From assembly GCF_031292145.1 (NCBI RefSeq), contig NZ_JARLHR010000120.1: 64,000 bases of DNA; one strand, given 5' to 3'. The first letter of the stretch is position 1. Each line of letters opens with the position of its first letter. Of the stretch, positions 2,766 to 53,424 are shown in pieces. The notes beneath the pieces are model-generated. The model searched no databases, had not been told where the DNA came from, and saw nothing but the letters and a program-made list of their open reading frames with translations. The stretch is from Clostridium sp. Its GTDB lineage: Bacteria > Bacillota > Clostridia > Clostridiales > Clostridiaceae. The position numbers and the translations under genes are program-made.

Positions 2766-3004
2766 GGCACATGAAAGAAAATAATAGACCAAAGATGCTA
2801 TGAGATGTTCTTATATGCAGAAATGTTCCGTATTGCAGCATAGCTGCTCTTTTCATAAGTGCATAGCTGCTCTTTTTCAATGTGCATATTTTGTGTCAGG
2901 CAAGGAAGTAAATTCTGCTCATAGTGGGCTATTAGTAGAATTTACTGACGCAGTATGACGCGAAATAGACAAGCATACCGGTCTATTATTTTCTTGATTG
3001 TGCC
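2766..3004. mobile_element. family-A MITE-like hairpin element, copy A1 (long, with an internal 25-bp duplication)
   Basis: Ends GGCACATGAAAGAAAATAATAGAC / GTCTATTATTTTCTTGATTGTGCC, flanked by direct TAA/TAA. Conserved tip CTCATAGTGGGCTATTAG. Internal GCATAGCTGCTCTTTT occurs twice. Confidence 0.75.
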
Positions 3005-3105
3005 TAACATTATACTTTTATTAATTATAGTGTTACTAAGAAAAATAGATACTATTTATGACTACGCACAAAAAATGCTCCTTTATAATTAACTCCATTA
3101 ATCCT

Positions 3106-3163
3106 TAAAAAACAAAAATCATGAATGGCTTCAGGATTTTTCACCTTCATTCCATCCATGATT
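3106..3163 (-). terminator. rho-independent terminator at the end of the aro operon
   Basis: Minus sense reads AATCATGGATGG..loop..CCATTCATGATT followed by TTTTGTTTTTT, downstream of the tyrA stop. Confidence 0.6.
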
Positions 3164-3274
3164 CTTAATCAAGTTTTATTGTATTTATATTTATTTTTCC
3201 AAAGTGACACTTCATTCATAAAAGTTAGTGTAAAATTTTATGCAAAATTACATTAATGCACAACTTAAATATCA

Positions 3275-4108
3275 TTATAACTTTTCACGTCTCTTTGTAG
3301 ATTTCATAAATAATTTCTTTAAGGATTCTGTATCATTATCTTTGATTGCATCCTTTATTTTGTCCAATTCAGTTTCAAAATTTACTATAGATTTTAAAAG
3401 ATTCTCTTTATTCCCTAGGAAAAGCTCACTCCATAAATCTTCATTAATATTTGCTATTCTAGTTAAATCTCTATAACTGTCTCCAACAAAACTTCCAGTA
3501 TCTCTGCCTTCTACATCACTATTTACCAGTGCAACTGCTAATGCATGCGGTAATTGGCTTGTAAAACCTATCATTTCATCATGATATTCAGGTGTTATCC
3601 TTCTAACCCTCTTAAATCCTATTTCATATGCTAAGTTTTCTATAAGCTTAAGATTCTCTTCTTTATTTCTATCTACTGGAGTCAAAATATAATTCGCTCC
3701 CTTAAATACTTCACTAGTTGCGAAATCTATTCCTTTCTTTTCTCTTCCTGCCATTGGATGTCCAAAAACGAAATCAATATTTTCTGGTAAAATGTTTATT
3801 ATATCATCAATAAACATTTTCTTAATTCCAGTAGCATCCGTTATTACAGCACCATCCTTAAAATTTTCTCTATTATCTATAATAAATTTTTTAACTAACC
3901 TAGGATATAAAGAAATAATTATAAAATCTGCATTTTTAATTATTTCATCGCCATTTGTAAAACCTTCTTTTATTAATCCAAGGTTCTTAGCTTTCTCTAA
4001 AGATTCTTCATTGATATCTATGCCATATACATCATCATACCCTGCTTCTTTTAAAGCCATGGTAAATGACCCTCCAATTACTCCAAGACCTACAACTACT
4101 ATTCTCAT
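3275..4108 (-). CDS. tyrA: prephenate dehydrogenase
   Basis: N-terminal Rossmann motif VVGLGVIGGS and a TyrA-like body. Start moved to MRIVVVG, which sits 8 nt after AAGGAG. Confidence 0.8.
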   Translation of the reverse strand: MRIVVVGLGVIGGSFTMALKEAGYDDVYGIDINEESLEKAKNLGLIKEGFTNGDEIIKNADFIIISLYPRLVKKFIIDNRENFKDGAVITDATGIKKMFIDDIINILPENIDFVFGHPMAGREKKGIDFATSEVFKGANYILTPVDRNKEENLKLIENLAYEIGFKRVRRITPEYHDEMIGFTSQLPHALAVALVNSDVEGRDTGSFVGDSYRDLTRIANINEDLWSELFLGNKENLLKSIVNFETELDKIKDAIKDNDTESLKKLFMKSTKRREKL

Positions 4109-4153
4109 ATTCATAGCTCCTTTATTCCGTATATTTAACAAAATTATAAATTA

Positions 4154-4211
4154 GGCACATGAAAGAAAATAATAGACAAGTATGCTGATCTATTATTTTT
4201 TTGATTGTACC
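4154..4211. mobile_element. family-A MITE-like element, copy A2 (short form), followed by a partial right-arm fragment to about 4283
   Basis: GGCACATGAAAGAAAATAATAGAC...TCTATTATTTTTTTGATTGTACC flanked by TTA/TTA. Positions 4240-4283 resemble the right arm of copy A6. Confidence 0.7.
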
Positions 4212-4290
4212 TTAGTATACTAGCCTATTTCATCTTAAGACGAAACAGACTAGCATATCTGGTTTATTATTTTATTTTCTATACTCCCAC

Positions 4291-7412: not shown

Positions 7413-8558
7413 CTAAGGTGTATATTTCCTATATCCACCAATTAACTTAAAGTAAGCACTGCTCTGTTCAATTAATTTTAAAGCCTTCGTTACTTTTTCG
7501 TCTTCAAGATTACCTTCAAAGTCAATATATAAGAAGTATTTCCAAGCACCCTTTTCCATAGGCCTTGATTCAATTTTCATCATATTTATATCATTTTCCG
7601 CGAAATGTCTTAATAATTTATATAGTGTACCTGCTTTATGTTCAAGAGAAAATACAACACTTACTTTATTACAACTTAAATCTGTTTCAAGATTTTTGGA
7701 TATTATTATAAATCTTGTTGAATTATCGCTTTGATTATTTATATTTTCTTTAATAATATCTAAATTATATATGCTGGCAGCCCTGTTACTTGCAATAGCA
7801 GCCTTTGACGTATCTTTCAAATCACTTATTAACTTTGCACTTACTGATGTACTATGAAAAGGTATAAGCTTCCAATGACTATAATTTTTTAAAAATTCAG
7901 TGCTTTGCTGCATTGGTTGTGGATGTGAATATACTTCTTTAATGGTATCTAAGGTTGTACCTTTAACACCAATTAAATGTTGATTTATTTTAATGCATTC
8001 TTCTCCAACAATGTAAAAACCATATTTATATAAAAGATCATAAACTTGTGCAATACCACCTGTTGATGAATTCTCTATTGGTACAACTCCATAATCAATT
8101 TCATCATTTTTTACTGCTAGAAATACATCTTCAAATTCATTACATTCTTTAGGATTTTCTACAATACCAAAATATTTTAGCATTGCTTCTTCACAAAATG
8201 ATCCCGAAACTCCATAGAATCCAATCTTACCTTGCTTTTTACCTTTAGCTTCTAATGAATCCATATTTTTTTCTAAAGTTCTTTCTGCTTCTAGCATTTT
8301 TCTGCTTTGCAACTCTCTAGCAACTTCCATTAAACCTATAAAAAACTTTCTTGTTTCTTGTGCATAATCGCTATTTTTTAAGTATTCTACATTTTTCTCA
8401 ACAACTTCATCTTCTCTACTCCTATTGAAAATTGGTAAGTTATTAATTTTTTTATAGTTACCTATTTTAATTACTGTATCCATACGTTCTTCAAAAAGCT
8501 TAGTTATTTCTTTATCTATTTCATCAATTCTATTCCTATAATTATCTATATCTGACAT
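7413..8558 (-). CDS. pheA: bifunctional chorismate mutase / prephenate dehydratase (P-protein) with ACT domain
   Basis: N-terminal CM type-2 helix (RNRIDEIDKEI), a PDT core (ESRP motif IESRPM) and a C-terminal ACT-like region. Confidence 0.8.
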   Translation of the reverse strand: MSDIDNYRNRIDEIDKEITKLFEERMDTVIKIGNYKKINNLPIFNRSREDEVVEKNVEYLKNSDYAQETRKFFIGLMEVARELQSRKMLEAERTLEKNMDSLEAKGKKQGKIGFYGVSGSFCEEAMLKYFGIVENPKECNEFEDVFLAVKNDEIDYGVVPIENSSTGGIAQVYDLLYKYGFYIVGEECIKINQHLIGVKGTTLDTIKEVYSHPQPMQQSTEFLKNYSHWKLIPFHSTSVSAKLISDLKDTSKAAIASNRAASIYNLDIIKENINNQSDNSTRFIIISKNLETDLSCNKVSVVFSLEHKAGTLYKLLRHFAENDINMMKIESRPMEKGAWKYFLYIDFEGNLEDEKVTKALKLIEQSSAYFKLIGGYRKYTP

Positions 8559-8600
8559 TTCACACTCTCCACACTCTTTTAATTAAATTGACAATTATTA

Positions 8601-8759
8601 GGCACATGAAAGAAAATAACAAGTCCAAAATGCCATGATTATTTTTCATCAGACAAGGAAGCAGGTTGGTCTCATAGCGAGCCTATTAGGGCAATCTGCT
8701 GACGCAGTATGATGGAAAATAGGCTTGGCAGATGGACTTGTTATTTTTTTGATTGTGCC
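8601..8759. mobile_element. family-A MITE-like element, copy A3 (full length, about 160 bp)
   Basis: GGCAC...GTGCC ends flanked by TTA/TTA. Tip CTCATAGCGAGCCTATTAGG. Lies between pheA and aroC inside the operon. Confidence 0.8.
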
Positions 8760-8972
8760 TTAATGCACAATTATAAGTTCATAGTTCACAATCATTAATG
8801 TACAATTTACACTTATAAGTTTATATTCCACACTTATGTAGCTGAATTTTAAAAGTCAAAATTTATCTTTTACGTTTAAGTATTAAACGCTGCTCTGGCA
8901 AACCTTATATTTTGTTCCTAGCACTTTCTGCTTTAGTCTATTTCTTAATTTTGAATTTATGATTATGCATTT

Positions 8973-10046
8973 TTATAAAATCAAATCAAGTATTCCTATT
9001 GCAGTTACTGCCTCAATTACTGGAACTGCTCTTTGTACTATACATGGATCATGTCTTCCTTCAATTACGAGATCTGTTTCCTTCTTTTCTGCAATGTCTA
9101 TTGTTCTTTGAGACGTTGATATTGATGGTGTTGGCTTTATTCCGACTTTGAATAATATTGGCATTCCATTAGTTATACCACCTGTGATTCCACCATTATT
9201 ATTTGTGTAAGTCTTTACTTGATCTCCATCATAATAGTATTCATCATTACACTCAGAACCTCTAAGCTTAGTCATCTCAAAGCCTTTTCCAAATTCTATT
9301 CCCTTAACTGCCGGAACAGAGAAGATTAAATGAGCTAAAGTAGATTCAACTGAATCAAAAAATGGATTTCCTATTCCAGCATTAATTCCAAGTACAGTAC
9401 ATTCAATAGTTCCACCTGTAGAATCTTGTTCTTTTCTTGCCTTAAGGATAGTATTTCTCATTTCCTCTTCTTTTTCTGGATTCAAAAGAGGCAGTTCCTT
9501 TATCTTTAAGTCACCCAAAAGTTCCTTACTTAATTCAACATCATAAAAACTCTTATCTTCAATATCCCCTATGCTCTTAACATGAGCTCCTATAACAATC
9601 CCTTTTACTTCTAAAACCTGCTTACATACGGCTCCCGCAAATACTAATGGTGCAGTAATTCTCCCCGAGAAATGCCCGCCTCCTCTGTAGTCATTAAATC
9701 CATTATATCTAATGAATCCAGGATAATCTGCGTGTCCAGGTCTCATTAAGTCCTTAAGCTTTCCATAGTCCTTCGAATGCATATCTGCATTTCTTATTAC
9801 TGCACAAAGAGGCGTGCCTGTTGTTTTCCCTTCAAAAAATCCACTTAAAATTTCAGGCGCATCGACTTCTTTTCTTGCAGTAGATAAATTGCTCTTACCT
9901 GGTGCACGACGAGCCATCTCTTTCATAACTTCTTCCATGTTAATTTCAATGCCAGATGGAAGTCCATCAATAGTAATCCCTATTCCTACTCCATGAGATT
10001 CACCAAAAATAGAAACCTTTAATTTATTGCCCCACATTCCACTCAT
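8973..10046 (-). CDS. aroC: chorismate synthase
   Basis: FGESHG and GRHDPC motifs. Start moved to ATG (MSGMWGNK), 7 nt after AGGAGGTG. Overlaps the aroA stop. Confidence 0.85.
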   Translation of the reverse strand: MSGMWGNKLKVSIFGESHGVGIGITIDGLPSGIEINMEEVMKEMARRAPGKSNLSTARKEVDAPEILSGFFEGKTTGTPLCAVIRNADMHSKDYGKLKDLMRPGHADYPGFIRYNGFNDYRGGGHFSGRITAPLVFAGAVCKQVLEVKGIVIGAHVKSIGDIEDKSFYDVELSKELLGDLKIKELPLLNPEKEEEMRNTILKARKEQDSTGGTIECTVLGINAGIGNPFFDSVESTLAHLIFSVPAVKGIEFGKGFEMTKLRGSECNDEYYYDGDQVKTYTNNNGGITGGITNGMPILFKVGIKPTPSISTSQRTIDIAEKKETDLVIEGRHDPCIVQRAVPVIEAVTAIGILDLIL

Positions 10047-11495: not shown

Positions 11496-12548
11496 TTAAT
11501 TAAAAAAATTAACATTAGTTTTTTCTAAAAATGATTCTCCAATATTATTTAACAATACTACTTTTAAAACATTATCAATATTTTTCTTATCTAATGCTAT
11601 TGTATCTAGAATTGCTGAACTATCATTTATTTCTACTTCATATGGAAGACCATATTGTATTAATATTTCTTTTATCTCATTGCTTACCCCTTGCTCTGTA
11701 AGCCCTTTATTTTCTGCAATATTACTTATTTCATACATACCTATGGCAACAGCTTCTCCATGAGTGAATTTTTTAAAATTATAATAAGTCTCTATTGCAT
11801 GCCCTAAAGTATGCCCAAAGTTTAATAGCATTCTTTCCCCTGTATCTTTTTCATCATTTTCCACAACACATTTTTTTATAAAGCAGCATTTGTGGATAAT
11901 AGACTCTATATTGTGCATAACTTCTTCTTTATTTTTTAAACTTTCTAAGAAATAAAAGAATTCTTTATCTTTTATACATCCATACTTTATAACTTCAGCC
12001 ATCCCATCCTTAAAAAATCTTTCGCTTAAAGTTTCTAGTACATTTGGATCTATTAAAACTAACTTAGGATGATAAAAACTTCCTACTAAATTTTTACCTC
12101 TTTCTAAATCTACAGCAACTTTTCCACCTACACTGCTGTCAACTTGAGCAAGTAATGAAGTTGGCATTTGAATAAAACTTATTCCCCTTAAGAAAGTAGA
12201 TGCAACAAATCCACCAAGATCCCCAATTACTCCTCCACCAAGAGTTAGTATTAAATCACTTCTTGTTATTTTAAAATCTAAAAGTTCATTATATATTAAT
12301 GGAAGGGTAGTAAATGCCTTAGTTTCTTCACCTGGCTCTAAAGCCATTAATTTAACATCATACCCTGACTCAACTAAAGATGACTTAACTTTATCCCCAT
12401 AATGATAATTCACATTTTTATCCGTTAATATAAATATTTTCTTACCCCTATAAACCTTGCTAATTTCTGAGTTTACCTTATCAATTAATCCCTTTTTAAT
12501 TATAATTGGATAACTTCTTTCGCCAAGCTGAACAACCAAATCTTCCAT
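11496..12548 (-). CDS. aroB: 3-dehydroquinate synthase
   Basis: 350 aa with [11 protein letters not shown] and metal-binding HTLGHAIE motifs. First gene of the aro operon. Confidence 0.85.
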
Positions 12549-12641
12549 TCTGTTTTGCCCCCTATACTTTAATTTTAATTAATGATGAATGATTAATTAT
12601 TAATAAAATTACTTCGTAATTTCTTTAATTATATATTTTTA

Positions 12642-12662
12642 GAAATCTCCAAAGGAGATTTC
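12642..12662 (-). promoter_or_regulatory. perfect 9-bp stem hairpin in the aroB 5' leader
   Basis: GAAATCTCC-TTT-GGAGATTTC, with no U-tract. Lies between the attenuator-like terminator and the aroB RBS. Confidence 0.4.
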
Positions 12663-12693
12663 ACCATTCATCTTTCATTATTAACATACATAT

Positions 12694-12726
12694 AAAAAAA
12701 TGGAACTCATATATAAATGAGTTCCA
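12694..12726 (-). terminator. intrinsic terminator (candidate attenuator) upstream of aroB
   Basis: Minus sense reads TGGAACTCAT-TTATAT-ATGAGTTCCA followed by TTTTTTT. It lies 146 nt upstream of the aroB ATG and 42 nt downstream of the aromatic-rich ORF stop. Confidence 0.75.
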
Positions 12727-12768
12727 CTAAATACCAATATCACCTGATATCAAAAACTTGTATAAATA

Positions 12769-12903
12769 TTAAAAACTCATTAAAAAGATATTTTCAGTTT
12801 TTTTGCAAAATAAATAGCCAGCGCTAAAATAAAAGCCCCAGAACATAAAATAAAAAAAGCTATAAAATTTTTGCATAACTGATTTCACAATATCTTTCTC
12901 CAT
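12769..12903 (-). CDS. 44-aa aromatic-rich small ORF (candidate aro leader peptide, or a small membrane peptide)
   Basis: SD GGAG sits 6 nt before the ATG. Peptide MEKDIVKSVMQKFYSFFYFMFWGFYFSAGYLFCKKTENIFLMSF has 10 F, 4 Y and 1 W. An in-frame ATG at 12915 has no SD. Confidence 0.5.
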   Translation of the reverse strand: MEKDIVKSVMQKFYSFFYFMFWGFYFSAGYLFCKKTENIFLMSF

Positions 12904-12981
12904 GATTTTCTCCATTTCTAAAATAATAATTATTTTACGAATATTAATATAACATTAATTTATAAAATTTGTCTTTTTACC

Positions 12982-13009
12982 ATTATAACAAACTCTAATA
13001 CATTGTCAA
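12982..13009 (-). promoter_or_regulatory. consensus sigma-A promoter driving the small ORF and the aro leader
   Basis: Minus sense reads TTGACA, a 16-nt spacer, then TGtTATAAT (extended -10). Confidence 0.6.
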
Positions 13010-13325
13010 TACAAATTAACTCTTTTTCATTTTTTACGTCATTTCTTTATTTATTTATCAGTAATATTACACTTAAAATATTACAATATCAAAAATAAAT
13101 GCATATAATTTATCTTTTATCAAAATTCTTTTTTTTGCACTGCAATATTATTTATCTAGATAATTATATACTTGCTCATATTTATTACTACGTAATTCAT
13201 TTAATAAACTAAGCATAATATCACCTTCTTTATCCATATTATTATACATTAAAATATTATTAATAAAATACATGTAACTGCAAATAATAAGAAAGTATTC
13301 TAAAGGACAAGGTGGTAATAAATAT

Positions 13326-14702
13326 ATGATTAAAAAATTTTTATCTATTTTTATAATGATTATAATATTTGTTCTAGTAAGCTGCAGCGCTAAAAATTCA
13401 ATCAAAAATATAGAAGTTGAGCAACCTAAAGCCTATGATACAATCCCAACAAGGTCAAGTAATAAACTTGAGGTGGATTATACCAACTTTAAGGGATTAA
13501 ACTTGGTTGAAGATGAGATTAAATTTAAAATTGATGGTAACTCATTAAATCTAAACTTACCAATATATTTAGATAAAAATAGATATTACATATCTTTGAA
13601 TGAGTTAATTGAAAAACTTAATGGTGAAATAGAAAAAGTTGATAATTCTTTAAATATAGTTATTAATAATAATATCTATTGCATTAACTTTGATAATAAT
13701 ACAGTTACATGTCCTAACTATAAATTTCCTCTAAAAAAAGCATTATTAAATTCTGATGACATGTATTATATAAATTTTTCAGATTTTTCGCATATGCTTA
13801 ATTTATATACTAGATGGGACAAAGATAATAAAATAATAGATTGTAAGATAGATGGTTTTAAAAATACAAATCTTACGCCTTATAAATCAACAATAAATCA
13901 AATAGGCCTCATAAGATTTGAAGATGTGGGAGTAACCTCCCAAGCCTACTCAAAAGATTACTTTGAAAAACTTCGTATTATAGCGCATTATATGTATGAA
14001 AAAAAAATACCTTATCATATTGCATGGATTCCTAGATATGTTATTCCAAATCAAGGAGTTGATAATGATCCTTTAACTAAGAATAATTTTGAACTAGCTG
14101 AAATGGTATATAGTTTAGATTATTTCACTTCTCATAATGGACTAATTGGTCTTCACGGATATACTCACCAATGTGGAAACACTGAATCAGGTGCTGGTTT
14201 TGAATTTGGAAAATTTGATCCTTCTGATACAAACTTTGAAGAAAAAATCCAAAAAGCCATTAAAACTGCATCTTATTTAGATATACCAATTAAATTCTTT
14301 GAAGTCCCTCATTATGAAATTACGCCAAGTCAAAATAAAATTGCTGAAAAATATTTTAAGATATTATACTATCCATTTAATGATTATGGAAGAGATAAAG
14401 CTGATTTAACAAAACCCCAGCTTAGTCCTTACAATAAGGCTTCCTATTACATTTCAACACCTCTTGATTATATCCCTGTTGACCAAGAAGAGGTTACTTT
14501 AGATAAACTACGCAACAATGCTAATGAAGCTAAAATGGGAAGTGTATTTTTCCATCCATCTTTAGAAGATAATTATATTTCATTAACTCAAGATAACGAT
14601 ACTTCTCCTACTTTTTATTATGTTAAAGATTCAACCTTAAAAAAATTAATAGGTATATTAGAGGAAAGGGGCTTTAAAATGATTAGCGTAGCAGATATTT
14701 AG
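13326..14702 (+). CDS. lipoprotein with stalk-like N-terminal domain and DUF2334/polysaccharide-deacetylase-like C-terminal domain
   Basis: Signal peptide with lipobox LVSC and RBS AAGGTGG. The DUF2334 assignment comes from the general sequence character (HGYTHQ) only. Confidence 0.5.
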   Translation: MIKKFLSIFIMIIIFVLVSCSAKNSIKNIEVEQPKAYDTIPTRSSNKLEVDYTNFKGLNLVEDEIKFKIDGNSLNLNLPIYLDKNRYYISLNELIEKLNGEIEKVDNSLNIVINNNIYCINFDNNTVTCPNYKFPLKKALLNSDDMYYINFSDFSHMLNLYTRWDKDNKIIDCKIDGFKNTNLTPYKSTINQIGLIRFEDVGVTSQAYSKDYFEKLRIIAHYMYEKKIPYHIAWIPRYVIPNQGVDNDPLTKNNFELAEMVYSLDYFTSHNGLIGLHGYTHQCGNTESGAGFEFGKFDPSDTNFEEKIQKAIKTASYLDIPIKFFEVPHYEITPSQNKIAEKYFKILYYPFNDYGRDKADLTKPQLSPYNKASYYISTPLDYIPVDQEEVTLDKLRNNANEAKMGSVFFHPSLEDNYISLTQDNDTSPTFYYVKDSTLKKLIGILEERGFKMISVADI

Positions 14703-14892
14703 TTGCTCTAATTATTCGGATTTTATTGATGAGATTAACACGAACAAAATGACAAAAAATTTTAATAAAGATGAAGTAATTGATAATATTGCTATATCAT
14801 TAGACTATGATTGCTTAGAAGATATACCACACTTTGATACAAGAAATGATTTTTTGAAGAAATTGAAAGAAGCTTTGAGACTATATGATAAA

Positions 14893-14977
14893 CTGACTTA
14901 CGGACAGTAAAAAGGGCAAGCTAACCAACTATTTATCAAATCAGTATACCTAATCTAAATAGCTGTCCGTAAGTCAG
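14893..14977. repeat. 85-bp element bounded by a perfect 15-bp inverted repeat
   Basis: CTGACTTACGGACAG ...55 nt... CTGTCCGTAAGTCAG read directly. Confidence 0.85.
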
Positions 14978-15856
14978 ATCTGAAGATACTTTAAAATTTA
15001 GCAATGATTTAAAAACTGCAAGAACTCAATTAGAGGCTGAAAAAATAACTTCCATTTATGAAAAAACTCAAGCTGGAGAGCCTCTTGATTCCATTTTACA
15101 AATTTTTAATGTTGCATAAGAAACCTCCTTAGTTGTCTTAATGAAAATATTTATCTATAACTCTGCTCGTTTATAGAGCAATTTTATATGTTACATTTTT
15201 ATTTATATTATTAGCACTAAAACTTGTTTCTAAATTTATACTAAGACAAAAGATAACATTAATTAATTATTTCATGCAATGTTTATTTAAGGACAAAAAA
15301 CACTTCTATTAAATATACTTGATTATTTTTTCTTCAAATGATATTTTTGATCTTCCTTCATCCCTCCAATAATAGAAATATATATCAATATTTGTGAAGT
15401 AACCTATATAATAACCATTAAGTCTATAATTAAAAAATTATTTAAGATTAATGTATCATTATAAACAAATTTAACTTTTTCTTATATGCAATTTTAATTA
15501 TCGTGAGTAGCATTATATATGACGCAATAAAATTTAATTTAAACTGCTCAACAATCGTAATTAGGCTTGAACCAATAATTATGTTAAATAAAATTCTATA
15601 CAAACCATTATTTTTTTCTTCAAACTACCTATAAATAGATTATATTCATAGTATCTAAACTATTTATAACAGTATTATTCAACATAATATTTACCTGCTT
15701 GCTTAAATTCTGTGATCGAGTTGATGCACTTATGAATACTATAATTGCAAAAGATGTATTTCTTACAAAGCCAGGTAAATTAGTAAAAAAAATCAGCATA
15801 CTTAGTTGCAAAAAACACTACTAAATTTAATGTTAAATAGCCTATATAGCATAAAG

Positions 15857-15893
15857 ATAAGAGCCTTGAGTTTTATTTTCTCTCAGCTCTTAT
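15857..15893 (-). terminator. hairpin immediately after the distal ABC ATPase gene
   Basis: ATAAGAGC..TGAG/CTCA..GCTCTTAT stem 3 nt after the stop. The U-tract is weak. Confidence 0.35.
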
Positions 15894-15895
15894 TT

Positions 15896-16789
15896 TTATT
15901 TATAATTCTCCATTTCATTACATTCACTAATAGATATTACTTTTGCTAAATTTCTATTTAGTAATTCTTGAATTTTATTATAAAAACTAACGTTATTAAG
16001 ATTTTCTTTTATACGTAGTATATTTTTCTTATCTTCAATAATTGTATAATCAGAATAATACTCTTTTAAAAGACTAATATCATTTATTGCTTCTAAATAT
16101 ACATTTATATCTTTATCTAATTTTTTTTGATGATTAAGTTTTTGCACCTTATGATTTACAATTTGGTATTTTTCATTACATACTTCATTTAAAAAATTAC
16201 TATCATGACTTGTTATTATTATACTTGTGTTATAATAGTTAACCAATTGTAATAGATTTTCTTTAAATAAAATTTTATTTTCGGCATCTAATCCGTCTAC
16301 TGGTTCATCTAATATTATAAGATCTGGAAAATTTAATAACGATATAGAAAACATAAGCTTTTGCTTCATTCCTTTTGAATAGGTTTGAACTTTTTTATGT
16401 ATATAATTTTCCATGCTAAAGTTTTCAACCAAAGTATCTATTCTCTCTTTTATATTAATATCTAATCCTTTTAAAACTGCAAAATATCTAAGATTATCAT
16501 ATCCTGATAAGTTCCAATATAAATTTCTATTTCCATCACTCATTATGCTAATTTTTTTATTTAAATAATTTCCAATTTTATTAATATCATGCTCTAACAC
16601 CTTGCATATTCCACTTCTAGGCATTATTTGTCTACAAACAATTCTTATAAAAGTAGTTTTACCTGAACCATTCTTCCCAACTAGTCCAATAATTTTATTT
16701 TGAGGAATACACACAGACATATTTTCAAATACAATCTTATTCCCAAAGTTCAAATTAATATCATCCATTTTCACAATAAAATCACTCAT
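15896..16789 (-). CDS. ABC transporter ATP-binding protein (no adjacent intact permease)
   Basis: Walker A GKNGSGKTT, signature YSKGMKQKL, Walker B LIILDEP. Confidence 0.8.
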   Translation of the reverse strand: MSDFIVKMDDINLNFGNKIVFENMSVCIPQNKIIGLVGKNGSGKTTFIRIVCRQIMPRSGICKVLEHDINKIGNYLNKKISIMSDGNRNLYWNLSGYDNLRYFAVLKGLDINIKERIDTLVENFSMENYIHKKVQTYSKGMKQKLMFSISLLNFPDLIILDEPVDGLDAENKILFKENLLQLVNYYNTSIIITSHDSNFLNEVCNEKYQIVNHKVQKLNHQKKLDKDINVYLEAINDISLLKEYYSDYTIIEDKKNILRIKENLNNVSFYNKIQELLNRNLAKVISISECNEMENYK

Positions 16790-16820
16790 TATTCTATATA
16801 CCTTTCATAAAAATTATATA

Positions 16821-16882
16821 TTTTAAAAGTAACAGTAGCAGATAAAAGTTTCATATTTAAATTTTACCTACTACTGTTACTT
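16821..16882 (-). terminator. stem-loop after the precursor gene array (possible leaky terminator)
   Basis: Minus sense reads AAGTAACAGTAG ..32 nt loop.. CTACTGTTACTT followed by TTAAAATAT. Confidence 0.35.
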
Positions 16883-16917
16883 CTAACTTTCTATTATGTT
16901 ATTTGCATGTTTTTAGA

Positions 16918-17019
16918 TTAAGCTGAAAAATTGCTACCATTGTATCCAACATTTCCGCAAACAATTGCACCTACTGATACGCATCCTGCTTTTATGTCTT
17001 TCTTTAAGAAAAATAGCAT
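16918..17019 (-). CDS. RiPP precursor peptide, copy 1 (33 aa MLFFLKKDIKAGCVSVGAIVCGNVGYNGSNFSA)
   Basis: Translated by hand. RBS GGAGGTG sits 6 nt before the ATG. The ORF is below the track cutoff and lies in the rSAM operon. Confidence 0.75.
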   Translation of the reverse strand: MLFFLKKDIKAGCVSVGAIVCGNVGYNGSNFSA

Positions 17020-17065
17020 ACTAAACACCTCCTTCTTTCTTTTTTAATTGCTTGGACATTTTTAA

Positions 17066-17167
17066 TTAAGCTGAAAAGTTGCTACCATTGTATCCAACAT
17101 TTCCACAAACAATTGCACCTACTGATACGCATCCTGCTTTTATGTCTTTCTTTAAGAAAAATAACAT
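17066..17167 (-). CDS. RiPP precursor peptide, copy 2 (identical 33-aa product)
   Basis: Same frame and peptide as copy 1, with RBS GGAGGTA. Differs from copy 1 only at synonymous sites. Confidence 0.75.
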   Translation of the reverse strand: MLFFLKKDIKAGCVSVGAIVCGNVGYNGSNFSA

Positions 17168-17213
17168 ACTAAATACCTCCTTCTTTCTTTTTTAATTGCT
17201 TGGACATTTTTAA

Positions 17214-17315
17214 TTAAGCTGAAAAGTTGCTACCATTGTATCCAACATTTCCACAAACAATTGCACCTACTGATACACATCCTGCTTTTATGTCTTTCTT
17301 TAAGAAAAATAACAT
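17214..17315 (-). CDS. RiPP precursor peptide, copy 3 (identical 33-aa product)
   Basis: Same peptide, with RBS AAAGGAGA. One synonymous difference from copy 2. Confidence 0.75.
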   Translation of the reverse strand: MLFFLKKDIKAGCVSVGAIVCGNVGYNGSNFSA

Positions 17316-17424
17316 ACCTAATCGTCTCCTTTCCTAAAAATTAAAAATCTATTTAAATTTCAATATGGACACTCTTTATTCCACATGAAAATTAAAGCAG
17401 CTTTATTTTCTAAAATTAATAAAT

Positions 17425-17883
17425 CTAATGAACTTGTTCTTTCTTTTTTGAAATAAGTGTTGCAATCATTCCAGTGAAGTAAAATAACACCAAATAAATT
17501 GCAAATAAAAATACAAGTGAACTTATATCAAAACTTACATTTATATTACTTAGAGAAATACTCGAATTAGATTCTGCTAATTTTTTTGTGTTTTCAATAA
17601 TAATATCTATATTATCTTTAGATAAATTAATATATAAGAATATTCCTGTTATTAACATAGATATAACTGATATAATTGCAGAATATAAAATATTATCTTT
17701 CTTTGAAAAATTATTCTTTAAAACATTAATTCCATATATTACTGCATTTATAACTAGCGGAATGATTGTACTATACAAGAATAAAGTAAGTATATTTATT
17801 GTATCCATTTGTATTTCTATGCTAAAAAGACTAATTATTAAAACTAAAATCATAATAATATAATATTTAATAGATTTATTCAT
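17425..17883 (-). CDS. small polytopic membrane protein of unknown function (about 4 TM)
   Basis: 152-aa hydrophobic ORF between the CPBP gene and the precursor array. No recognisable motif. Confidence 0.6.
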   Translation of the reverse strand: MNKSIKYYIIMILVLIISLFSIEIQMDTINILTLFLYSTIIPLVINAVIYGINVLKNNFSKKDNILYSAIISVISMLITGIFLYINLSKDNIDIIIENTKKLAESNSSISLSNINVSFDISSLVFLFAIYLVLFYFTGMIATLISKKKEQVH

Positions 17884-17895
17884 AAAATCACCTCT

Positions 17896-18546
17896 TTAAA
17901 ATATTTTTAAAACCACTACTACATCATAAAACCAGTGAAGTAAAATTGATGATGATAGATTTTTAGTATATAAATACATACTTCCTAAAATAATTCCAAG
18001 TGGAACCCTAATAATTAAATTAGTTAAAATATCTTCATTTGAATGTAATATAAAAGCAAATATTAATGAACTAATTATCATAGAAACAATTTTACTTAAA
18101 TTTCTACTTAAAATATGGATAATTATGCCTCTTGATAAAATTTCTTCTGATATTCCAATAAACATAAAATGTATAAATACATAATAATTGCTTATAAGCG
18201 TATTGAATTTTTGGGCATATATAACTATAGATACAAACAAAATCAATATACTAATATTCATAATTATTGCTTTTCTATTTTTAAAACCCGACAAGCCTAT
18301 GTCATTAAAAGTTAATTTATCTGTAAATTTCAATATATATATTGGAATTAAAGCAAAACTAATAAAAATTGGTATTGATTGTGAAGCAAGTATAGAAATC
18401 AATGGTTGATCTATTCCAAACATTCCGACTAATAACGACATACTTATTAGCAATAATAGCAACATCAATGATGGTAAAACTGCTAACGCAATAACTTTTA
18501 ATACATTATTAAAAAAATCTTCTTTATTCCTAATTATATTTACCAT
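17896..18546 (-). CDS. CPBP (CAAX/Abi) family intramembrane metalloprotease
   Basis: Motifs EEILSRG (EExxxR), FAFILH (FxxxH) and HWFYD (HxxxD/N) in a polytopic membrane protein. Confidence 0.8.
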   Translation of the reverse strand: MVNIIRNKEDFFNNVLKVIALAVLPSLMLLLLLISMSLLVGMFGIDQPLISILASQSIPIFISFALIPIYILKFTDKLTFNDIGLSGFKNRKAIIMNISILILFVSIVIYAQKFNTLISNYYVFIHFMFIGISEEILSRGIIIHILSRNLSKIVSMIISSLIFAFILHSNEDILTNLIIRVPLGIILGSMYLYTKNLSSSILLHWFYDVVVVLKIF

Positions 18547-18547
18547 A

Positions 18548-19324
18548 TTAACTCACATCCATTTTTTTAAAACGCTTTTCAGCACGTTTTAATATTGTAA
18601 TTAAATATATAGCTGTAATTAGCAGATTTATAAAAACTAATAATACTGGATTAGATGCTTGCAAATATATCTTTTGATCAACCATATATGAAGGACTAAT
18701 ATATTTCAAATATGGAATATATGATAAAAGCTGTATTACTAAAAAGAATGCAACCGAAGATACACATACAATAAACGGCTTGAAGTATAACCCAAGTAAT
18801 ATGCAACCAGCAACAAAAATCAATATTTCTAAGCTATAAAAAAGCATTGAAATAAGTATTGTTGCGGTATCTAGAGAAAAGAAAATTTTCGATCCTATTT
18901 CAGAATTTGCAATAAAAATATAAAACACTAATATACTTATTAAATTGTAAGCAATAAAGTAAACAATAAATACTGCTGCTACTGCTAAGAATTTTGCATA
19001 CAAAAGCTTTTTTCTATTACATATATGAAGTAATTGCAATTTTATTTGGCCTGTTTCTATTTCGCTTGATACATTGTTTATAGATAGAAATAGAAATCCA
19101 AAAAAAGGCAAACCTAACAAAAACATTAAACACCACATTATGTTTACAAAATCCAAACATGTCATTAAAGTATTGTTGTTACTTGATACTTGTACAAAAG
19201 AAAATTTAAAATATATACTAATTCCGTAAAAAGCAGGAAGTATACATGTAGCAAATATAAAGTTTTTCATACTTCTTTTAGAAATTTTATACATTTCTAT
19301 ATTGATAATATTTAATAAACTCAT
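18548..19324 (-). CDS. ABC-2 type transporter permease (LanG/E-like)
   Basis: 258 aa with about 6 TM, adjacent to the ATPase. Confidence 0.65.
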   Translation of the reverse strand: MSLLNIINIEMYKISKRSMKNFIFATCILPAFYGISIYFKFSFVQVSSNNNTLMTCLDFVNIMWCLMFLLGLPFFGFLFLSINNVSSEIETGQIKLQLLHICNRKKLLYAKFLAVAAVFIVYFIAYNLISILVFYIFIANSEIGSKIFFSLDTATILISMLFYSLEILIFVAGCILLGLYFKPFIVCVSSVAFFLVIQLLSYIPYLKYISPSYMVDQKIYLQASNPVLLVFINLLITAIYLITILKRAEKRFKKMDVS

Positions 19325-19342
19325 ACTATACCCCCATATTAA

Positions 19343-20254
19343 TTAATTATTAATGAAAAACTGCATTAAAGAATCTTTCTGAACATCAATATCTTTAATC
19401 TTCAGATTGTTTCTTATGCAAAATTCTAATATTTCCGAAAGCAAATTGATATTATTGAATTTTATGCAACTATCTTTAATTGAAATTTCTTTTATTAAAT
19501 TTTTATCATTTTTTATCTTATTTATTATTTCATTATCTTGAATAGATCCATTTAAACATATGGTATAGAATTTATTACTGTTCAATTCACTGTATAACCC
19601 ATCATAAATTACTTTTTTATTTCCAATAACAAGTATTTTTTTACATAAGTCTTCCACTTCCTTTAGCTGGTGACTTGAAAATATAATTGATACCTTTTTT
19701 TCATTAGATAAATAGTGAATCTTTTCCTTTAACAGTTCTATACCAACTGGATCCAATCCAACAAATGGTTCATCTAAAATGAGTAGTTTAGGCTCTGAAA
19801 GTAACGACTGAACTAAACCTAGTCTTTGCTTCATTCCAAATGAAAAAGATTTAACCTTTTTATTATAAACATTCTCTAAATCTACAAATTTTAAAAGCTC
19901 CATTATCTTTTCTTTATATACAGCTTGTTTGACTTTTTTTATTCCCATCATTTGAATTTTTAAGTTATCATAGGCAGTCATATCCTCATAAAAACTGCAG
20001 TCTACAAGTGAACCTATACTATTCATAACATTTGGATCACTATGGTCTATTAATTTTTCTTCATAATAAATTTTCCCTGAAAAATCTTTATAAAGCCCCA
20101 AAATTGTTTTCATAAGTGTTGTTTTACCTGCTCCATTTTTACCAATAAGCCCTATAGTTTCTCCATATTTAATCGAAAAACTTATATTATCAAGTGCTAA
20201 AAATTCTCCAAATCTTTTTGTAACACCATCTACTGTTAATAGATTTTCACTCAT
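19343..20254 (-). CDS. ABC transporter ATP-binding protein (LanF-like)
   Basis: Walker A GKNGAGKTT, signature FSFGMKQRL, Walker B LLILDEP. Confidence 0.85.
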   Translation of the reverse strand: MSENLLTVDGVTKRFGEFLALDNISFSIKYGETIGLIGKNGAGKTTLMKTILGLYKDFSGKIYYEEKLIDHSDPNVMNSIGSLVDCSFYEDMTAYDNLKIQMMGIKKVKQAVYKEKIMELLKFVDLENVYNKKVKSFSFGMKQRLGLVQSLLSEPKLLILDEPFVGLDPVGIELLKEKIHYLSNEKKVSIIFSSHQLKEVEDLCKKILVIGNKKVIYDGLYSELNSNKFYTICLNGSIQDNEIINKIKNDKNLIKEISIKDSCIKFNNINLLSEILEFCIRNNLKIKDIDVQKDSLMQFFINN

Positions 20255-20266
20255 ATAAAACTCCTC

Positions 20267-21046: not shown

Positions 21047-21057
21047 ATTCCTTATAT

Positions 21058-22305: not shown

Positions 22306-22707
22306 TTTAATTTCTCCTCCACATAAATATATATCGATATATTGCAAATAAAAATTTGCATCTAATCAATTTGTTTTTAATACGTTTCAATCACTGCCTA
22401 AATAGTAACACAATCGCTCAATATTTTATCATTTAAGTAAAAAACAGATTGATATTTGTAATATATGTTCAAAAAAAAGCAACATTATACTTTTATTACT
22501 GATTTAATTACAAAAACAAAACTTATATATTTTTCTTACTATATTTAATGATTGATTTTTAATCTAGCTTTAATAATAAAAAACTTAGTGAAGCAATTAA
22601 TCTATGCTAAAAATTAGAACGTTTACCAAAAAATTGTTACATTCAAGATAATAACATCCTAATAAATCATTTATTACAAAATAAAGTACATAAATATCTT
22701 ATTTAAA

Positions 22708-22753
22708 ACAAAAAGTAGTTTGAAATATTAACTAATATTCAAACTACTTTTTG
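22708..22753 (-). terminator. rho-independent terminator after the LytTR regulator gene
   Basis: AAAAAGTAGTTTGAA..loop..TTCAAACTACTTTTT followed by GTTTT on the minus sense. Confidence 0.7.
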
Positions 22754-23523: not shown

Positions 23524-23537
23524 TTTCTCATCTCCTC

Positions 23538-42228: not shown

Positions 42229-42386
42229 GGCATATTCAAAAAAATAATAAGTCAGTATGCTAGTCTATTTCCAGTCATACTTCGTCAGCATGTTCACCTA
42301 ATAGGCCCACTATGAGGCAAACATACTTCCTTGTCTGACTGGAAATATACATCGCATCACGGACTCATTATTTTCTTTCATATGCC
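42229..42386. mobile_element. family-A MITE-like element, copy A6 (full length, inverted orientation)
   Basis: GGCATATTC...GAATATGCC-type ends. The tip is the reverse complement of CTCATAGTGGGCCTATTAGG. Flanks are TGA/TGG. Confidence 0.75.
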
Positions 42387-47316: not shown

Positions 47317-47375
47317 GACACATGAAAAAAAATAATAGCTACGCATACTGATCTATTATTTTTTTTGATTGTTCC
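47317..47375. mobile_element. family-A MITE-like element, copy A7 (short)
   Basis: GACACATGAAAAAAAATAATAGC...ATCTATTATTTTTTTTGATTGTTCC flanked by TAA/TAA. Confidence 0.7.
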
Positions 47376-49162: not shown

Positions 49163-49443
49163 ATACCCAACTGTGGACTTAGACTTATGCATTAACCTAC
49201 CGAAAGGCAGTGGAATCTGTTGTTTCGGGATGCTATAGAATATAGCTGTGGATTTCTACCAGTAGAAGTTGCACCATTTAAACTTGCTCCTAAGGCAAGC
49301 TTATGACAAGTTTAAATGGTACAACTTCTACTGAAGAAATGCCTACAGCCATATTCTAAATGCACCCTGCACAAAAGATTCCACTGCCTTTCTAGTGTGG
49401 TATATATTTCAATGTATAAATCTAATTAATATTTTGGATATCT
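49161..49443. repeat. about 283-bp long imperfect palindrome (C1)
   Basis: Arms 49201-49285 and 49307-49395 are near-complementary. The outer ends are AGATACCCAA/TTGGATATCT. It starts at the MCP gene stop codon. Confidence 0.8.
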
Positions 49444-49563: not shown

Positions 49564-49747
49564 AACTTAGATAAATATGTGTGAAATAGGCCTTTAAAAA
49601 TGAGCTGTCGAAGGTTCTTAATAGGTGGTTGTTCCACTTTAGCTTGTCACATTGAATAATGGGAGCATGCTAAAGTGGAACAACCACCTATTTAGAACCT
49701 TCCAGCGCAATTTTCATAGTCCTATGGAACACATATTTATCTAAGTT
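49564..49747. repeat. about 184-bp long imperfect palindrome (C2)
   Basis: AACTTAGATAAATATGTGT...ACACATATTTATCTAAGTT, with inner stem AATAGGTGGTTGTTCCACTTTAGC/GCTAAAGTGGAACAACCACCTATT. Confidence 0.8.
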
Positions 49748-50955: not shown

Positions 50956-50963
50956 TCAATATA

Positions 50964-52880
50964 TTATACCTTAATATCAATAGCAGAAATAGTTAAATCA
51001 TTAAAGAAACTTCTACAGTTTACCAAATCTACTGGTTTATCTTTAGTTGACACATGCACATTAACAAATAACCCCAGTGTAGCTAATCCATCTGCTAATT
51101 TCTGCTTATTTTTATTTATAGTGGATGCAAAGTCACTCTCACATTTTAAGTTTACATCAATTCTATTATCTCTAATAGTTAAATATCCATCAACTTCTCC
51201 TAAGTGTGCAGTCTTAACACTAACAATCATCTTAGCATTAGTTGTATCAATTTTTTTACCGTCTTTCCTATTATCTTTAATTATAAGTTTACATGGATAC
51301 TCTTGTAAATTTGCCGTTATAGGCATATTTAAATAATAGTATTCATTACTAACAGAATTAAATACTTTAATATCACTAATGTTTGTTTTTATTAAATTCA
51401 TTATTTTATCATATCCATCTTCTTTTAATTCTGTCTTATCTATTATTTCCTTAACTATATCTCTTATATTATTAATTTTATCCTTCATTTCAGCTTTTAT
51501 TTCATCTTTACCACCTAATGTAGTTCTAAGCACTGTATCGTCAGTCTCTAGCTCCCCCATACTTTGCTTAATCTCAACTGTATCTTTCATATCATTAGTT
51601 GACACTTCTTTAGGTTGAATATTACTTTTATCATTTAATATATTTTCTTGCTTATCATCTTTTCCTTGAATTTTATTATTTAATAACTCACTAAATGTTT
51701 TAAATTCATTATCTGTAAGTTTAACTTGCCTGCCTTCAATATTACTTAATAATTCTTCTAATTTTGATTTATTGGATGATTCTATAAGCTTTTCTGCTTG
51801 AGTTTTAGGTGCATCACTTTTTACTATGTCATCCCCCATAGTATCTTTAATTAATTTCACAATTTCTTTATTATCCAATTTTTCAATTAAAGAAGGTGAT
51901 AGATTTATTTTTTCAATATTAGAATCACTAACTCCACTATTAGCATTTTTTTGAATTATATTTAATTCACTATCTTCACTTCCCGCTAATGTTTTTAATA
52001 TATCTAATATATTTATTTTTTTTGTTAATGGATCATTTTCATTATAAATTTTTGAAGCTAACGCTGTTGATGTATCTAAAATATTTCTAGATACTTCCGG
52101 TTCTTTATTTATTAACTTATTATTTATAAAATTATCAAAAACTTTATTATCTGAAGTTTTCTCTGAAAACTCTAAAGAATTTAAAGAATCATTTAATTTT
52201 GTGAGAATCTGCTCTATTGATACGTTACCCTTAAATAATTTATTAAAACTATTTATACTTTCTTCTGAAAAATCCAAGTTATTTTCTACAAACGCAAGTA
52301 TATCATCTGATGTCATATTTTTAAATTCATTAAAAAATTTAGTTAACATTTCTTTAGTAGCTTGACCTTCTGTGCTGTCAGCTGATATTCCTTTACTTTG
52401 CAAATACGTTTGAATAAATGCATCTATCTCTTTGGGATTTGCACTTACCCTTCCATTAAACTGAATCAATCCCTTGATTTGATTAATATTATCCCTAGTT
52501 AAAGGTATATTATGTTTAACCATATTCTTCAAAACATCAATATCATCTTTAGAAAGTCCTTCTTTATCAATTATGTCTTGAAAACTCTCATCTTTATCTA
52601 TTTCTTCATCCGTAGTATTTTGAACTAATTTTAATTTTAACTTCCCATTTTCAAATCCATCTACTTGAAATTTCGCTAATTTTACATTATCTAAATTAAC
52701 ATTACTATCAAGTTCCGCATTAAATTGCCATCCATCCGCAAGCTTTATAGTAATATCATTTCCTTGTCCCTTTTCAACTACTCTTCCTGCAAAACGTTCC
52801 CCTACTTGAAAAGTCAATTTACTAGAAACTTTCTTTGTATTTACATTATATGCATTCCCTACATTCCAAACTCCTGGCAT
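50964..52880 (-). CDS. flagellar hook-length control (FliK)-like protein
   Basis: About 638 aa, low complexity and Asn/Lys/Asp-rich, with a C-terminal FliK-like domain. Start moved to MPGVWN after GGGGGGAG. Confidence 0.5.
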   Translation of the reverse strand: MPGVWNVGNAYNVNTKKVSSKLTFQVGERFAGRVVEKGQGNDITIKLADGWQFNAELDSNVNLDNVKLAKFQVDGFENGKLKLKLVQNTTDEEIDKDESFQDIIDKEGLSKDDIDVLKNMVKHNIPLTRDNINQIKGLIQFNGRVSANPKEIDAFIQTYLQSKGISADSTEGQATKEMLTKFFNEFKNMTSDDILAFVENNLDFSEESINSFNKLFKGNVSIEQILTKLNDSLNSLEFSEKTSDNKVFDNFINNKLINKEPEVSRNILDTSTALASKIYNENDPLTKKINILDILKTLAGSEDSELNIIQKNANSGVSDSNIEKINLSPSLIEKLDNKEIVKLIKDTMGDDIVKSDAPKTQAEKLIESSNKSKLEELLSNIEGRQVKLTDNEFKTFSELLNNKIQGKDDKQENILNDKSNIQPKEVSTNDMKDTVEIKQSMGELETDDTVLRTTLGGKDEIKAEMKDKINNIRDIVKEIIDKTELKEDGYDKIMNLIKTNISDIKVFNSVSNEYYYLNMPITANLQEYPCKLIIKDNRKDGKKIDTTNAKMIVSVKTAHLGEVDGYLTIRDNRIDVNLKCESDFASTINKNKQKLADGLATLGLFVNVHVSTKDKPVDLVNCRSFFNDLTISAIDIKV

Positions 52881-52912
52881 ATCATTTTCTCCCCCCACCA
52901 ATTAATACTTTA

Positions 52913-53068
52913 GAGACCCGAAAGAAAATAACAAGTCAAAGATTCTGAGGATATTTTGCGCTAGGCAAAGAACCATAACCCACGCATAGTGCGCTATGTA
53001 AGGGTTATAGTAATGAAGCATAGCACAAAACAGACCAGAATCTGATTGGTTATTTTTTTGAAGATCCC
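52913..53068. mobile_element. family-A (subtype) MITE-like element, copy A8
   Basis: GAGACCCGAAAGAAAATAACAAGTC...GGTTATTTTTTTGAAGATCCC flanked by TTA/TTA. Confidence 0.7.
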
Positions 53069-53071
53069 TTA

Positions 53072-53191
53072 GACATACGAAAGAAAATATTAAGTCCCTG
53101 ATGGATGTCTATTTCCATTTGATAAGGAAATGCGTTTATCAAATAGTATGCTATTAGATAAACATATGACTTATTATTTTTTTAATATGCC
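53072..53191. mobile_element. family-A MITE-like element, copy A9
   Basis: GACATACGAAAGAAAATATTAAGTC...GACTTATTATTTTTTTAATATGCC flanked by TTA/TTA. The left TTA is shared with A8. Confidence 0.7.
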
Positions 53192-53265
53192 TTAACGCTA
53201 ATTCTAATATACTTATCGTATAATTAATGTATAAATTAACTAAATTCTATTGCTAATTTCACCTA

Positions 53266-53424
53266 GGCACATGAAAATAAATAACAAGTCCAAAGTTGCC
53301 ATGAATATTTTTCATCAGGCAAGAAGGTGAATTGCCCTCATAGCGGGCCTATTAGGTCAATTTGCCGACGTAGGATGATGGGAAATAGGCTGGCAAAAGG
53401 ACTTGTTATTTATTTGATTGTGCC
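53266..53424. mobile_element. family-A MITE-like element, copy A10 (full length)
   Basis: GGCACATGAAAATAAATAACAAGTCC...GGACTTGTTATTTATTTGATTGTGCC flanked by CTA/CTA. Tip CTCATAGCGGGCCTATTAGG. Confidence 0.8.

Follow-up and report, generated by a model that had tools for sequence, protein, structure and literature searches.

GGCAC-ended hairpin repeats of Clostridium: a MITE family with duplicated TWA target sites and a strand-specific hairpin

The 64,000-nt stretch of Clostridium sp. contig NZ_JARLHR010000120.1 analyzed here (hereafter the window) is AT-rich (~24-32% G+C) and harbors 13 copies or fragments of a short repeat, the GGCAC family, whose termini read GGCACATGAAAGAAAATAA...TTATTTTTTTGA(T/A)TGTGCC. 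This is a family of MITEs (miniature transposable elements with inverted repeats) of a known kind, the description of which was not found in the searchable literature; neither the terminus string nor a Clostridium MITE of such kind was present in any paper found by literature search. The elements are very probably non-autonomous DNA transposons of Clostridium sensu stricto. Most complete copies are flanked by a duplicated trinucleotide of the form TWA (W, A or T) that is copied from the target, and the long copies form a hairpin that is more stable on one strand.

Eleven of the 13 are recognisable copies and two are fragments, and all lie between genes. The 19-nt terminus GGCACATGAAAGAAAATAA occurred eight times in the window at three or fewer mismatches, compared with 0.09 occurrences expected by chance. 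Inverted-repeat detection found arms of 26-29 nt that were 79-88% complementary at 2765/3005, 8600/8760, 47310/47381, and 53266/53424. An earlier note on this DNA had claimed at least 11 copies and a half copy; profile searches of the window, using profiles built from 41 long and 38 short copies of other genomes, recovered every one of these, as well as a further fragment at ~4215-4277.

Target-site duplication and empty sites

Left and right termini were paired into 97 distinct complete copies in 89 loci and the window. The flanking trinucleotides were identical in 84 of them (TTA/TTA in 50, TAA/TAA in 33, and CTA/CTA in one). Among pairs of the TWA/TWA form, the middle base agreed in 83 of 87 copies and was discordant in four (Fisher p = 3e-19). 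Each outer position of the TWA fitted 93-96 of the 97 copies, the middle base was T or A in 95, and positions -4 to -10 and +4 to +10 showed an AT-rich background only. The trinucleotides are thus genuine direct repeats, as the earlier note had read them, and do not belong to a longer palindrome. TTA was found in 39 and TAA in 26 confidently oriented copies, both in either orientation of the element. Because both trinucleotides occur among oriented copies, the TWA is copied from the target and is external to the element, and a longer palindrome and a fixed recombination core are therefore excluded. Eight identical pairs had been claimed for the window, of which seven are identical (TTA four times, TAA twice, and CTA once), and the eighth, at 29802, is near-identical only (CTA/TTA). 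The copy at 42229 is flanked by TGA and TGG with no duplication visible. One of 76 copies overlapped a long open reading frame (ORF), and no bias was detected among tandem, convergent, and divergent spacers or relative to gene ends. Insertion into pre-existing hairpins was rejected, as reconstructed empty sites folded no better than random intergenic TWA sites (p = 0.43).

An empty site was mapped to the base in the leader of leuS, where Rfam placed a T-box at 29812-30030 that overlaps the 52-bp short copy at 29802-29853 (minus strand). The cls-leuS spacer was aligned with those of Clostridium sp. LS, C. beijerinckii (two sources), and C. saccharoperbutylacetonicum (loci L094-L097). The relatives were without exactly the 52-bp element plus 3 bp, and the leader was conserved on both sides of the copy. 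The empty site in three relatives reads TATATC-TTA-A-AGAGAG, and the filled site in the window reads TATATC-CTA-[GGCAC...GTGCC]-TTA-C-AGAGAG. The uninterrupted T-box of C. beijerinckii, with its 5' strand at GCGAUGAAUAGGAG..., scored 119.7 bits, compared with 97.8 bits for the window; the window T-box scores lower because MITE sequence was taken for the 5' strand of stem I in the model's alignment, and RNA-family annotation was confused by the element for the same reason. The actual 5' strand of the T-box is located at 29767-29801, and the leader spans 29765-30030 with the specifier codon CUU. The element is thus inserted in the 5' strand of stem I, just 5' of the AGAGA motif. Minimum free energy folding of the stem I region did not reproduce the canonical stem, and the MITE formed a self-contained hairpin.

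Three relatives also lacked the copy at 8601 in the aroC-pheA spacer, with flanks that were too diverged for a base-precise site, and the same divergence applied to empty-site mapping of the copy at 27664. In a C. beijerinckii-like locus (L041), the site was filled in all runs examined, and a paralogous locus, ~10% diverged, was without the element. The comparison of empty and filled sites proposed earlier thus found that the leuS leader and the aroC-pheA spacer differ in the presence of the element between related species, in three relatives each.

Anatomy, distribution, and possible transposase

The terminal inverted repeats (TIRs) are ~25 bp long (left, GGCACATGAAAGAAAATAAYARRYC; right, GGCACA(A/T)TCAAAAAAATAAYARRYC) and conserved over the 41 long copies, and the family ends are of the GGCACATGAAAG type. 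The long form is ~159 bp in length (152-159 bp; 41 copies aligned with a mean column identity of 81%), and its interior is an imperfect palindrome. Its left part consists of GGCACATGAAAGAAAATAAYARRYC, AAAGATGC.., TATTTTGYGTCA, GACAAGGARG, and a variable stem; the tip, (C/T/A)TCATAG..CTAT(T/G)RG, is followed by a variable stem, CTGACGCAGTATGA, YRCAAAATA, GACTAGCATACT, and GRYYTRTTATTTTTTTGA(A/T)TGTGCC. Short forms of 52-75 bp are internal-deletion derivatives of the long form; their deletion junctions are shared between different genomes, so that the short forms themselves were amplified. Nested modules, which are also recurrent, extend some copies to 195-276 bp, so that copies range from 52 to 276 bp overall. 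Short and long forms, which had been noted to coexist in the window, are both found in other genomes as well. Within one genome, subfamilies coexist that are distinguished by their terminal repeat (CAAGTC or TAGACC type) and by their tip. A conserved tip had been proposed; CTCATAG-YGRGC-CTATTAG is present in the four long window copies and ATAG...CTAT is found family-wide, but the tip as a whole differs between subfamilies.

The elements have no coding capacity. The only recurring ORF has 22-23 codons (MKENN[KR][SP]KM..IFCVRQG...), begins at an ATG in the left terminus (for example, in the copy at 42229-42386, minus strand), and was open in 23 of the 41 long copies and broken in the rest. It had no ribosome-binding site inside the element; tried as the possible N-terminus of a transposase, it matched no transposase, only three proteins of 47-59 aa, and it is probably incidental. 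Two recurrent nested modules of ~65 nt were observed in long copies: GAGCAGAGAACC...GAGTCGAGCTTCC, in C. uliginosum and a metagenome-assembled genome (MAG; loci L018, L050, L054, L066, and L081), and TCTTAAGATAAGTTCAACTAAATTC..., in L025, L033, L047, and L066. Neither matched an Rfam family.

An exact 21-mer of the GGCAC family was found in at least 89 stretches of other genomes in a scan of one genome per species. Most of the listed stretches came from C. uliginosum and C. frigidicarnis, and other carriers were C. beijerinckii, C. chromiireducens, C. puniceum, C. vincentii, C. sartagoforme, C. aquiflavi, C. weizhouense, and several MAGs. The family also occurs on three Clostridium plasmids, including C. 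taeniosporum pCt2 and C. estertheticum pCF001-A. No copies were found in phage genomes, and a scan of viral contigs gave one chance match in a coding region. DNA nearly identical to the window was present in four runs of one bioreactor-metagenome study only, the contigs of which stop at the element. The leucyl-tRNA synthetase (LeuRS) of the window is 94% identical to those of Clostridium sp. LS and C. beijerinckii, and 85% identical to that of C. uliginosum. At 8601, the copy shares 96% identity with copies in C. uliginosum and a Bacillota MAG, and only 83% with the copy at 53266. Set against the 85% identity of LeuRS, the 96% identity of copies across species points to horizontal spread or strong constraint, as judged from sequence identity. 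In Rfam 15, no family reached its gathering threshold on any GGCAC element; the best match was a plant miRNA hairpin (26 bits, with a threshold of 144), and the threshold was reached only by the T-box leader and, in locus L050, by a TPP riboswitch.

The window contains 49 non-overlapping ORFs of at least 100 aa, of which 37 were covered by Pfam and NCBIfam scans. For the other 12 (genes of the aromatic amino acid operon, an MFS transporter, cardiolipin synthase, leuS, and a two-component pair), names were taken from existing Pfam matches of these genes or their orthologues. No transposase domain was detected in the window ORFs, in line with the earlier note, and six ORFs matched no family. When the 698 ORFs of the 89 loci and the window (~0.74 Mb) were compared with one another by blastp, no multi-copy protein emerged, and pairs of termini that were 400-3,500 bp apart with matching TWA enclosed only host genes (such as nrdG, an exonuclease, and transporters). 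A tblastn search with Escherichia coli IS5 InsH, which is distant from the ISL2 and IS1031 groups, gave no match in ~0.8 Mb of Clostridium loci and the window; against plasmids, the same search was swamped by enterobacterial IS5. The examined regions around copies on pCt2 and pCF001-A contained IS91 at most and no IS5-type gene. Blastn of the 34-nt terminus against plasmids returned MITE copies and chance matches only, and a metagenome scan for a left arm that continues into a Shine-Dalgarno sequence and an ATG returned 120 chance matches, none of which belonged to the family.

The IS1031, ISL2, and IS427 groups of the IS5 family typically make TNA or TWA duplications, as do the related eukaryotic PIF/Harbinger elements. 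The earlier note had suggested an insertion sequence (IS) of the IS5/IS1031-like or the IS3/IS30 families; TWA fits IS5, IS3 and IS30 do not fit, and no IS with matching termini was found. Because no partner was found, the assignment to a transposase family rests on the length and sequence of the duplication. In the proposed mechanism, a DDE transposase supplied in trans would make a 3-bp staggered cut, and this enzyme would most likely belong to the IS5 family (IS1031, ISL2, and IS427 groups) or to the PIF/Harbinger type; its gene may reside elsewhere in the genome or may have been lost. Copies insert at TWA in AT-rich intergenic DNA and duplicate 3 bp. A long master form of ~159 bp gave rise, by recurrent internal deletions, to short forms that also amplified, and some copies gained nested modules. 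Because the element folds on itself, its insertion may do no harm to a transcribed region such as the leuS T-box leader.

Hairpin pairing and the competing explanations

The long form is a hairpin of ~70 bp per arm, with a fold energy of -77.7 kcal/mol (z = -11.2) for the copy at 8601. RNAalifold analysis of the 41 long copies yielded 52 pairs, 23 of which had compensatory double changes. Paired cells amounted to 94.8%, a value reached in none of 500 column shuffles (87.3%), and compared with 39-47% when partners were slid by 1-3 columns. Cells with double changes numbered 185, compared with 66 in shuffles, although covariation counts are inflated by inheritance within subfamilies. Seventeen covarying pairs are located in two inner helices, outside any plausible transposase-binding terminus. 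The covariation that the earlier note had proposed to test was statistically supported, and its observation of varying inner stems also stood, as the inner stems of the long window copies (TAAATTCT, CAGGTTGG, TATGTTTG, and GTGAATTG) are each complementary to their own partner.

Pairing is not equivalent on the two strands. G-U cells outnumbered A-C cells by 191 to 43, or by 27 to 7 when counted by pair, and by 27 to 4 among 21 representatives that were less than 90% identical (p = 3e-5). For the consensus, the fold energy was -50.0 on the top and -19.2 on the bottom strand. The mean RNA fold was -64.5 kcal/mol for the top and -51.4 kcal/mol for the bottom strand, and the top strand was more stable in all 41 long copies and in 30 of 38 short forms. 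Under DNA parameters, the corresponding values were -32.6 and -27.9 kcal/mol, and the top strand was better in 39 of the 41. Because a leading-strand C-to-T bias predicts the opposite asymmetry, the excess of G-U over A-C is read as selection on the single-stranded top strand. We infer that pairing is kept by selection on a single-stranded form, which is either a transcript or single-stranded DNA.

Several points weigh against the reading of the elements as non-autonomous DNA transposons. A double-stranded cut-and-paste transposase gives no reason for a strand-specific hairpin, and neither a partner transposase nor a full-length IS with matching termini was present in the searched data. No two sampled copies in one genome were more than 97.5% identical and the site differences found were all between species, so that current activity is unproven. 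Terminus depth in the source metagenome was ~8,500-9,700, compared with ~9-12 for unique flanks (~700-1,000x), which suggests that a genome of the source organism has roughly 1,000 termini and agrees with the window density of one copy per 5 kb, but the sample is a metagenome, and other hosts of the family in it could contribute to the depth. In a C. beijerinckii-like isolate, the terminus excess was only ~10-fold.

A plain double-stranded-DNA MITE model does not predict the strand-specific hairpin, and two other possibilities therefore share a small but real chance. The element may be a mobile structured-RNA module that is used by the host or by the element itself (for example, as a small RNA produced by processing, or to regulate its own transposase), or it may transpose via a folded single-stranded intermediate of the top strand with a 3-bp TWA duplication. 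We know of no bacterial transposase family for which a folded single-strand intermediate together with a TWA duplication has been described.

It is unlikely that the element is primarily a structured RNA module (a small RNA, an RNase III substrate, an mRNA stabiliser, or a terminator) with secondary or ancient mobility. The strong covariation, the top-strand preference (G-U over A-C at 191:43, and greater stability in 41 of 41), the conserved internal loops ACAAGGARG and CTGACGCAGTATGA, and the tandem G-A motif are all consistent with such a role, as is the location of copies in 1-8-kb RNA-seq contigs of several Clostridium species, although these contigs give no strand or ends. On the earlier question of transcription, copies lie inside RNA-seq contigs but no element-sized transcript was seen in them. 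Furthermore, no terminator-like site was called at element ends, no Rfam family matched, and there was no positional bias to gene ends. The top strand was antisense to flanking tandem genes in 29 cases and sense in 14 (p = 0.03), so that the better-folding strand is usually not in the mRNA. The duplication and the empty site show insertion by transposition regardless.

The view that the complementary arms are not selected, and arose as a foldback copy of one arm per subfamily or by gene conversion within the element, is quite improbable. Palindromic MITEs can arise by foldback, and the inflation of covariation counts by inheritance within subfamilies is in keeping with this origin. However, the asymmetric, non-complementary loops are the same in all subfamilies, and so is the terminal difference between left and right (TGA vs TTC/ATC, a tandem G-A juxtaposition). 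Either process would erase these features, which makes repeated foldback or conversion between arms unlikely, and an excess of G-U over A-C on a single strand is predicted by neither. Movement as single-stranded DNA by a HUH (Y1) transposase (REP/BIME-RAYT or IS200/IS605 relics) or by a recombinase with a folded-strand substrate such as integron attC would account for the strand-specific hairpin but is highly improbable, for although the top strand folds better with DNA parameters (39 of 41) and has a mild orientation bias relative to GC skew (on the C-rich strand in 48 copies vs 28), HUH and attC systems make no target-site duplication, whereas a variable 3-bp flank is copied from the target here, and the elements have true TIRs of ~25 bp, are far longer than REP, are not in cassette arrays, and have no Y1 transposase, RAYT, or integrase gene recurring near copies. 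Membership of two such groups was likewise rejected: that of REP/BIME-RAYT on account of the length of 52-276 bp, the GGCAC start, the 3-bp duplication, and the lack of a recurrent neighboring ORF, and that of IS200/IS605-type relics (PATE) on account of the TIRs and the variable duplicated TWA. REP/BIME elements are palindromes of 20-40 nt with a GTAG or CGTC head that lack duplication-flanked inverted-repeat termini and go with a Y1 transposase, and the IS200/IS605-type relics have neither TIRs nor a duplication and insert 3' of a fixed tetra- or pentanucleotide.

Window copies, related systems, and significance

The first window copy is a 239-bp long form at 2766-3004 (plus strand) with a TAA duplication (2763-2765 and 3005-3007); its RNA folds at -89.4 kcal/mol on the top strand and -71.5 kcal/mol on the bottom strand. 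It contains a nested 80-nt module at ~2804-2882, which is tandem-duplicated, with a terminator-like hairpin GCAGCATAGCTGC followed by TCTTTT and a near-repeat GTGCATAGCTGC followed by TCTTTTT. The GCAGCATAGCTGC hairpin was the only terminator-like call, and the module recurs both in copies of the element from other Clostridium genomes and within RNA-seq contigs. A 58-bp short form, an internal-deletion derivative, is located at 4154-4211 (plus strand, TTA duplication, profile E = 8e-14) and adjoins the degenerate right-arm fragment of an older copy at ~4215-4277 (plus strand, profile match), which is new to this analysis; this arrangement hints at nesting or clustering. The copy at 8601-8759 (plus strand, TTA duplication) in the aroC-pheA spacer is a canonical long form of 159 bp. 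A solo right-type terminus, GGCATATTCAAAAATATAATAA, at 26407-26440 (plus strand) is a truncated copy with TTA directly before it, and 27664-27732 (plus strand) is a degenerate short copy with TAA on its left flank and a weak profile match (E = 0.001). Upstream of the leuS promoter region, a degenerate long form lies at 29571-29707 (minus strand, E = 8e-14).

The long form at 42229-42386 (minus strand, 158 bp, E = 1e-40) has GGCATAT at both termini, and the short form at 47317-47375 (plus strand, 59 bp) has a TAA duplication. Three copies, all on the plus strand, are clustered at the end of the series: diverged copies of 156 bp (52913-53068, a long form; E = 5e-21) and 120 bp (53072-53191, profile match), each with a TTA duplication, and a canonical long form of 159 bp (53266-53424, E = 1e-40) with a CTA duplication. 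The single TTA at 53069-53071 is both the right duplication of the 52913 copy and the left duplication of the 53072 copy; because one TTA serves both, the 53072 copy was inserted into the site duplicated by the 52913 copy. A 645-aa ORF at 50964-52901 (minus strand) beside this cluster had no Pfam or NCBIfam match.

The window contained three further near-perfect hairpins of ~185-190 nt (-100 to -111 kcal/mol) at 49202-49392, 49564-49747, and 57877-58062. Their sequence is unrelated to the GGCAC family, and relatives that are 73-86% identical were found in Clostridium loci L050, L035, L026, L065, L003, L102, and L047; they are probably further MITE-like families. In the relatives of the window organism, a repeat of ACTGTAAACTG / CAGTTAACAATTAAC units round a small GC-rich hairpin was observed after the leuS T-box terminator (L094 and L097) and in the aroC-pheA spacer (L103 and L104), at sites where the window has none or a GGCAC element. 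A low-GC (24%) block at ~12000-26000 encodes an agr-like set (AgrB at 25120-25752, a histidine kinase, and a LytTR regulator), a radical SAM/SPASM enzyme, and ABC transporters, and looks like a peptide-modification cluster from its predicted genes. Unlike the rest of the window, this block contained no MITE copy.

The closest known systems include the Tourist-like MITEs of eukaryotes, whose duplication sequence is TWA. The IS5 family, moreover, comprises the prokaryotic relatives of PIF/Harbinger. mPing, a Tourist-like element, makes a 3-bp target-site duplication (PMC7584900). Like the GGCAC family, the Tourist-like elements (mPing; PIF/Harbinger) are small and non-coding, with TIRs that begin with GG, AT-rich targets, 3-bp duplications, bursts, and deletion derivatives moved in trans. 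In contrast to these eukaryotic elements, the GGCAC family has a bacterial host and forms a covarying hairpin over its whole length, and no sequence similarity between the two was shown. IS5-family elements (IS1031, ISL2, and IS427) and their bacterial MITE derivatives make duplications of 2-4 bp, typically TNA/TWA, and have ends that begin with GG or GA; with no IS with matching ends in the data searched, membership of the GGCAC family would be suggested by the duplication.

Correia elements (NEMIS/CREE) of Neisseria are MITEs of 100-160 bp with inverted repeats of ~26 bp, hundreds of intergenic copies, long and short forms, and co-transcribed hairpins, and their known effects include outward promoters, an IHF site, and RNase III processing. 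They duplicate TA rather than TWA, and their sequence is unrelated to the GGCAC family. RUP and BOX of Streptococcus pneumoniae, ERIC/IRU of enterobacteria, bcr1 of the Bacillus cereus group, and RPE of Rickettsia are intergenic repeats of ~100-160 bp that form long stable RNA hairpins, and several of them are thought to be moved in trans. On the other hand, they have different termini and different or no duplications (TA for RUP; TTTAT for bcr1), and none matched the GGCAC family by sequence. To our knowledge, none of them has been reported from Clostridium.

The family has practical consequences for the study of its hosts. A repeat at up to ~1,000 copies breaks short-read assemblies of host Clostridium, as seen in the Logan contigs, which stop where the element begins. 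In solvent-producing and psychrophilic clostridia, the element can also serve as a marker to type strains and to follow gene flow. The GGCAC family, of which C. beijerinckii has ~10 copies and a close relative perhaps ~1,000, is a bacterial counterpart to bursts of the Tourist/mPing type. The insertion in the T-box that controls leuS, an aminoacyl-tRNA synthetase gene, is a natural experiment in which a self-folding insert sits in stem I. Furthermore, compensatory evolution together with the asymmetry between G-U and A-C makes a clear case for a MITE hairpin that is selected in its single-stranded state.

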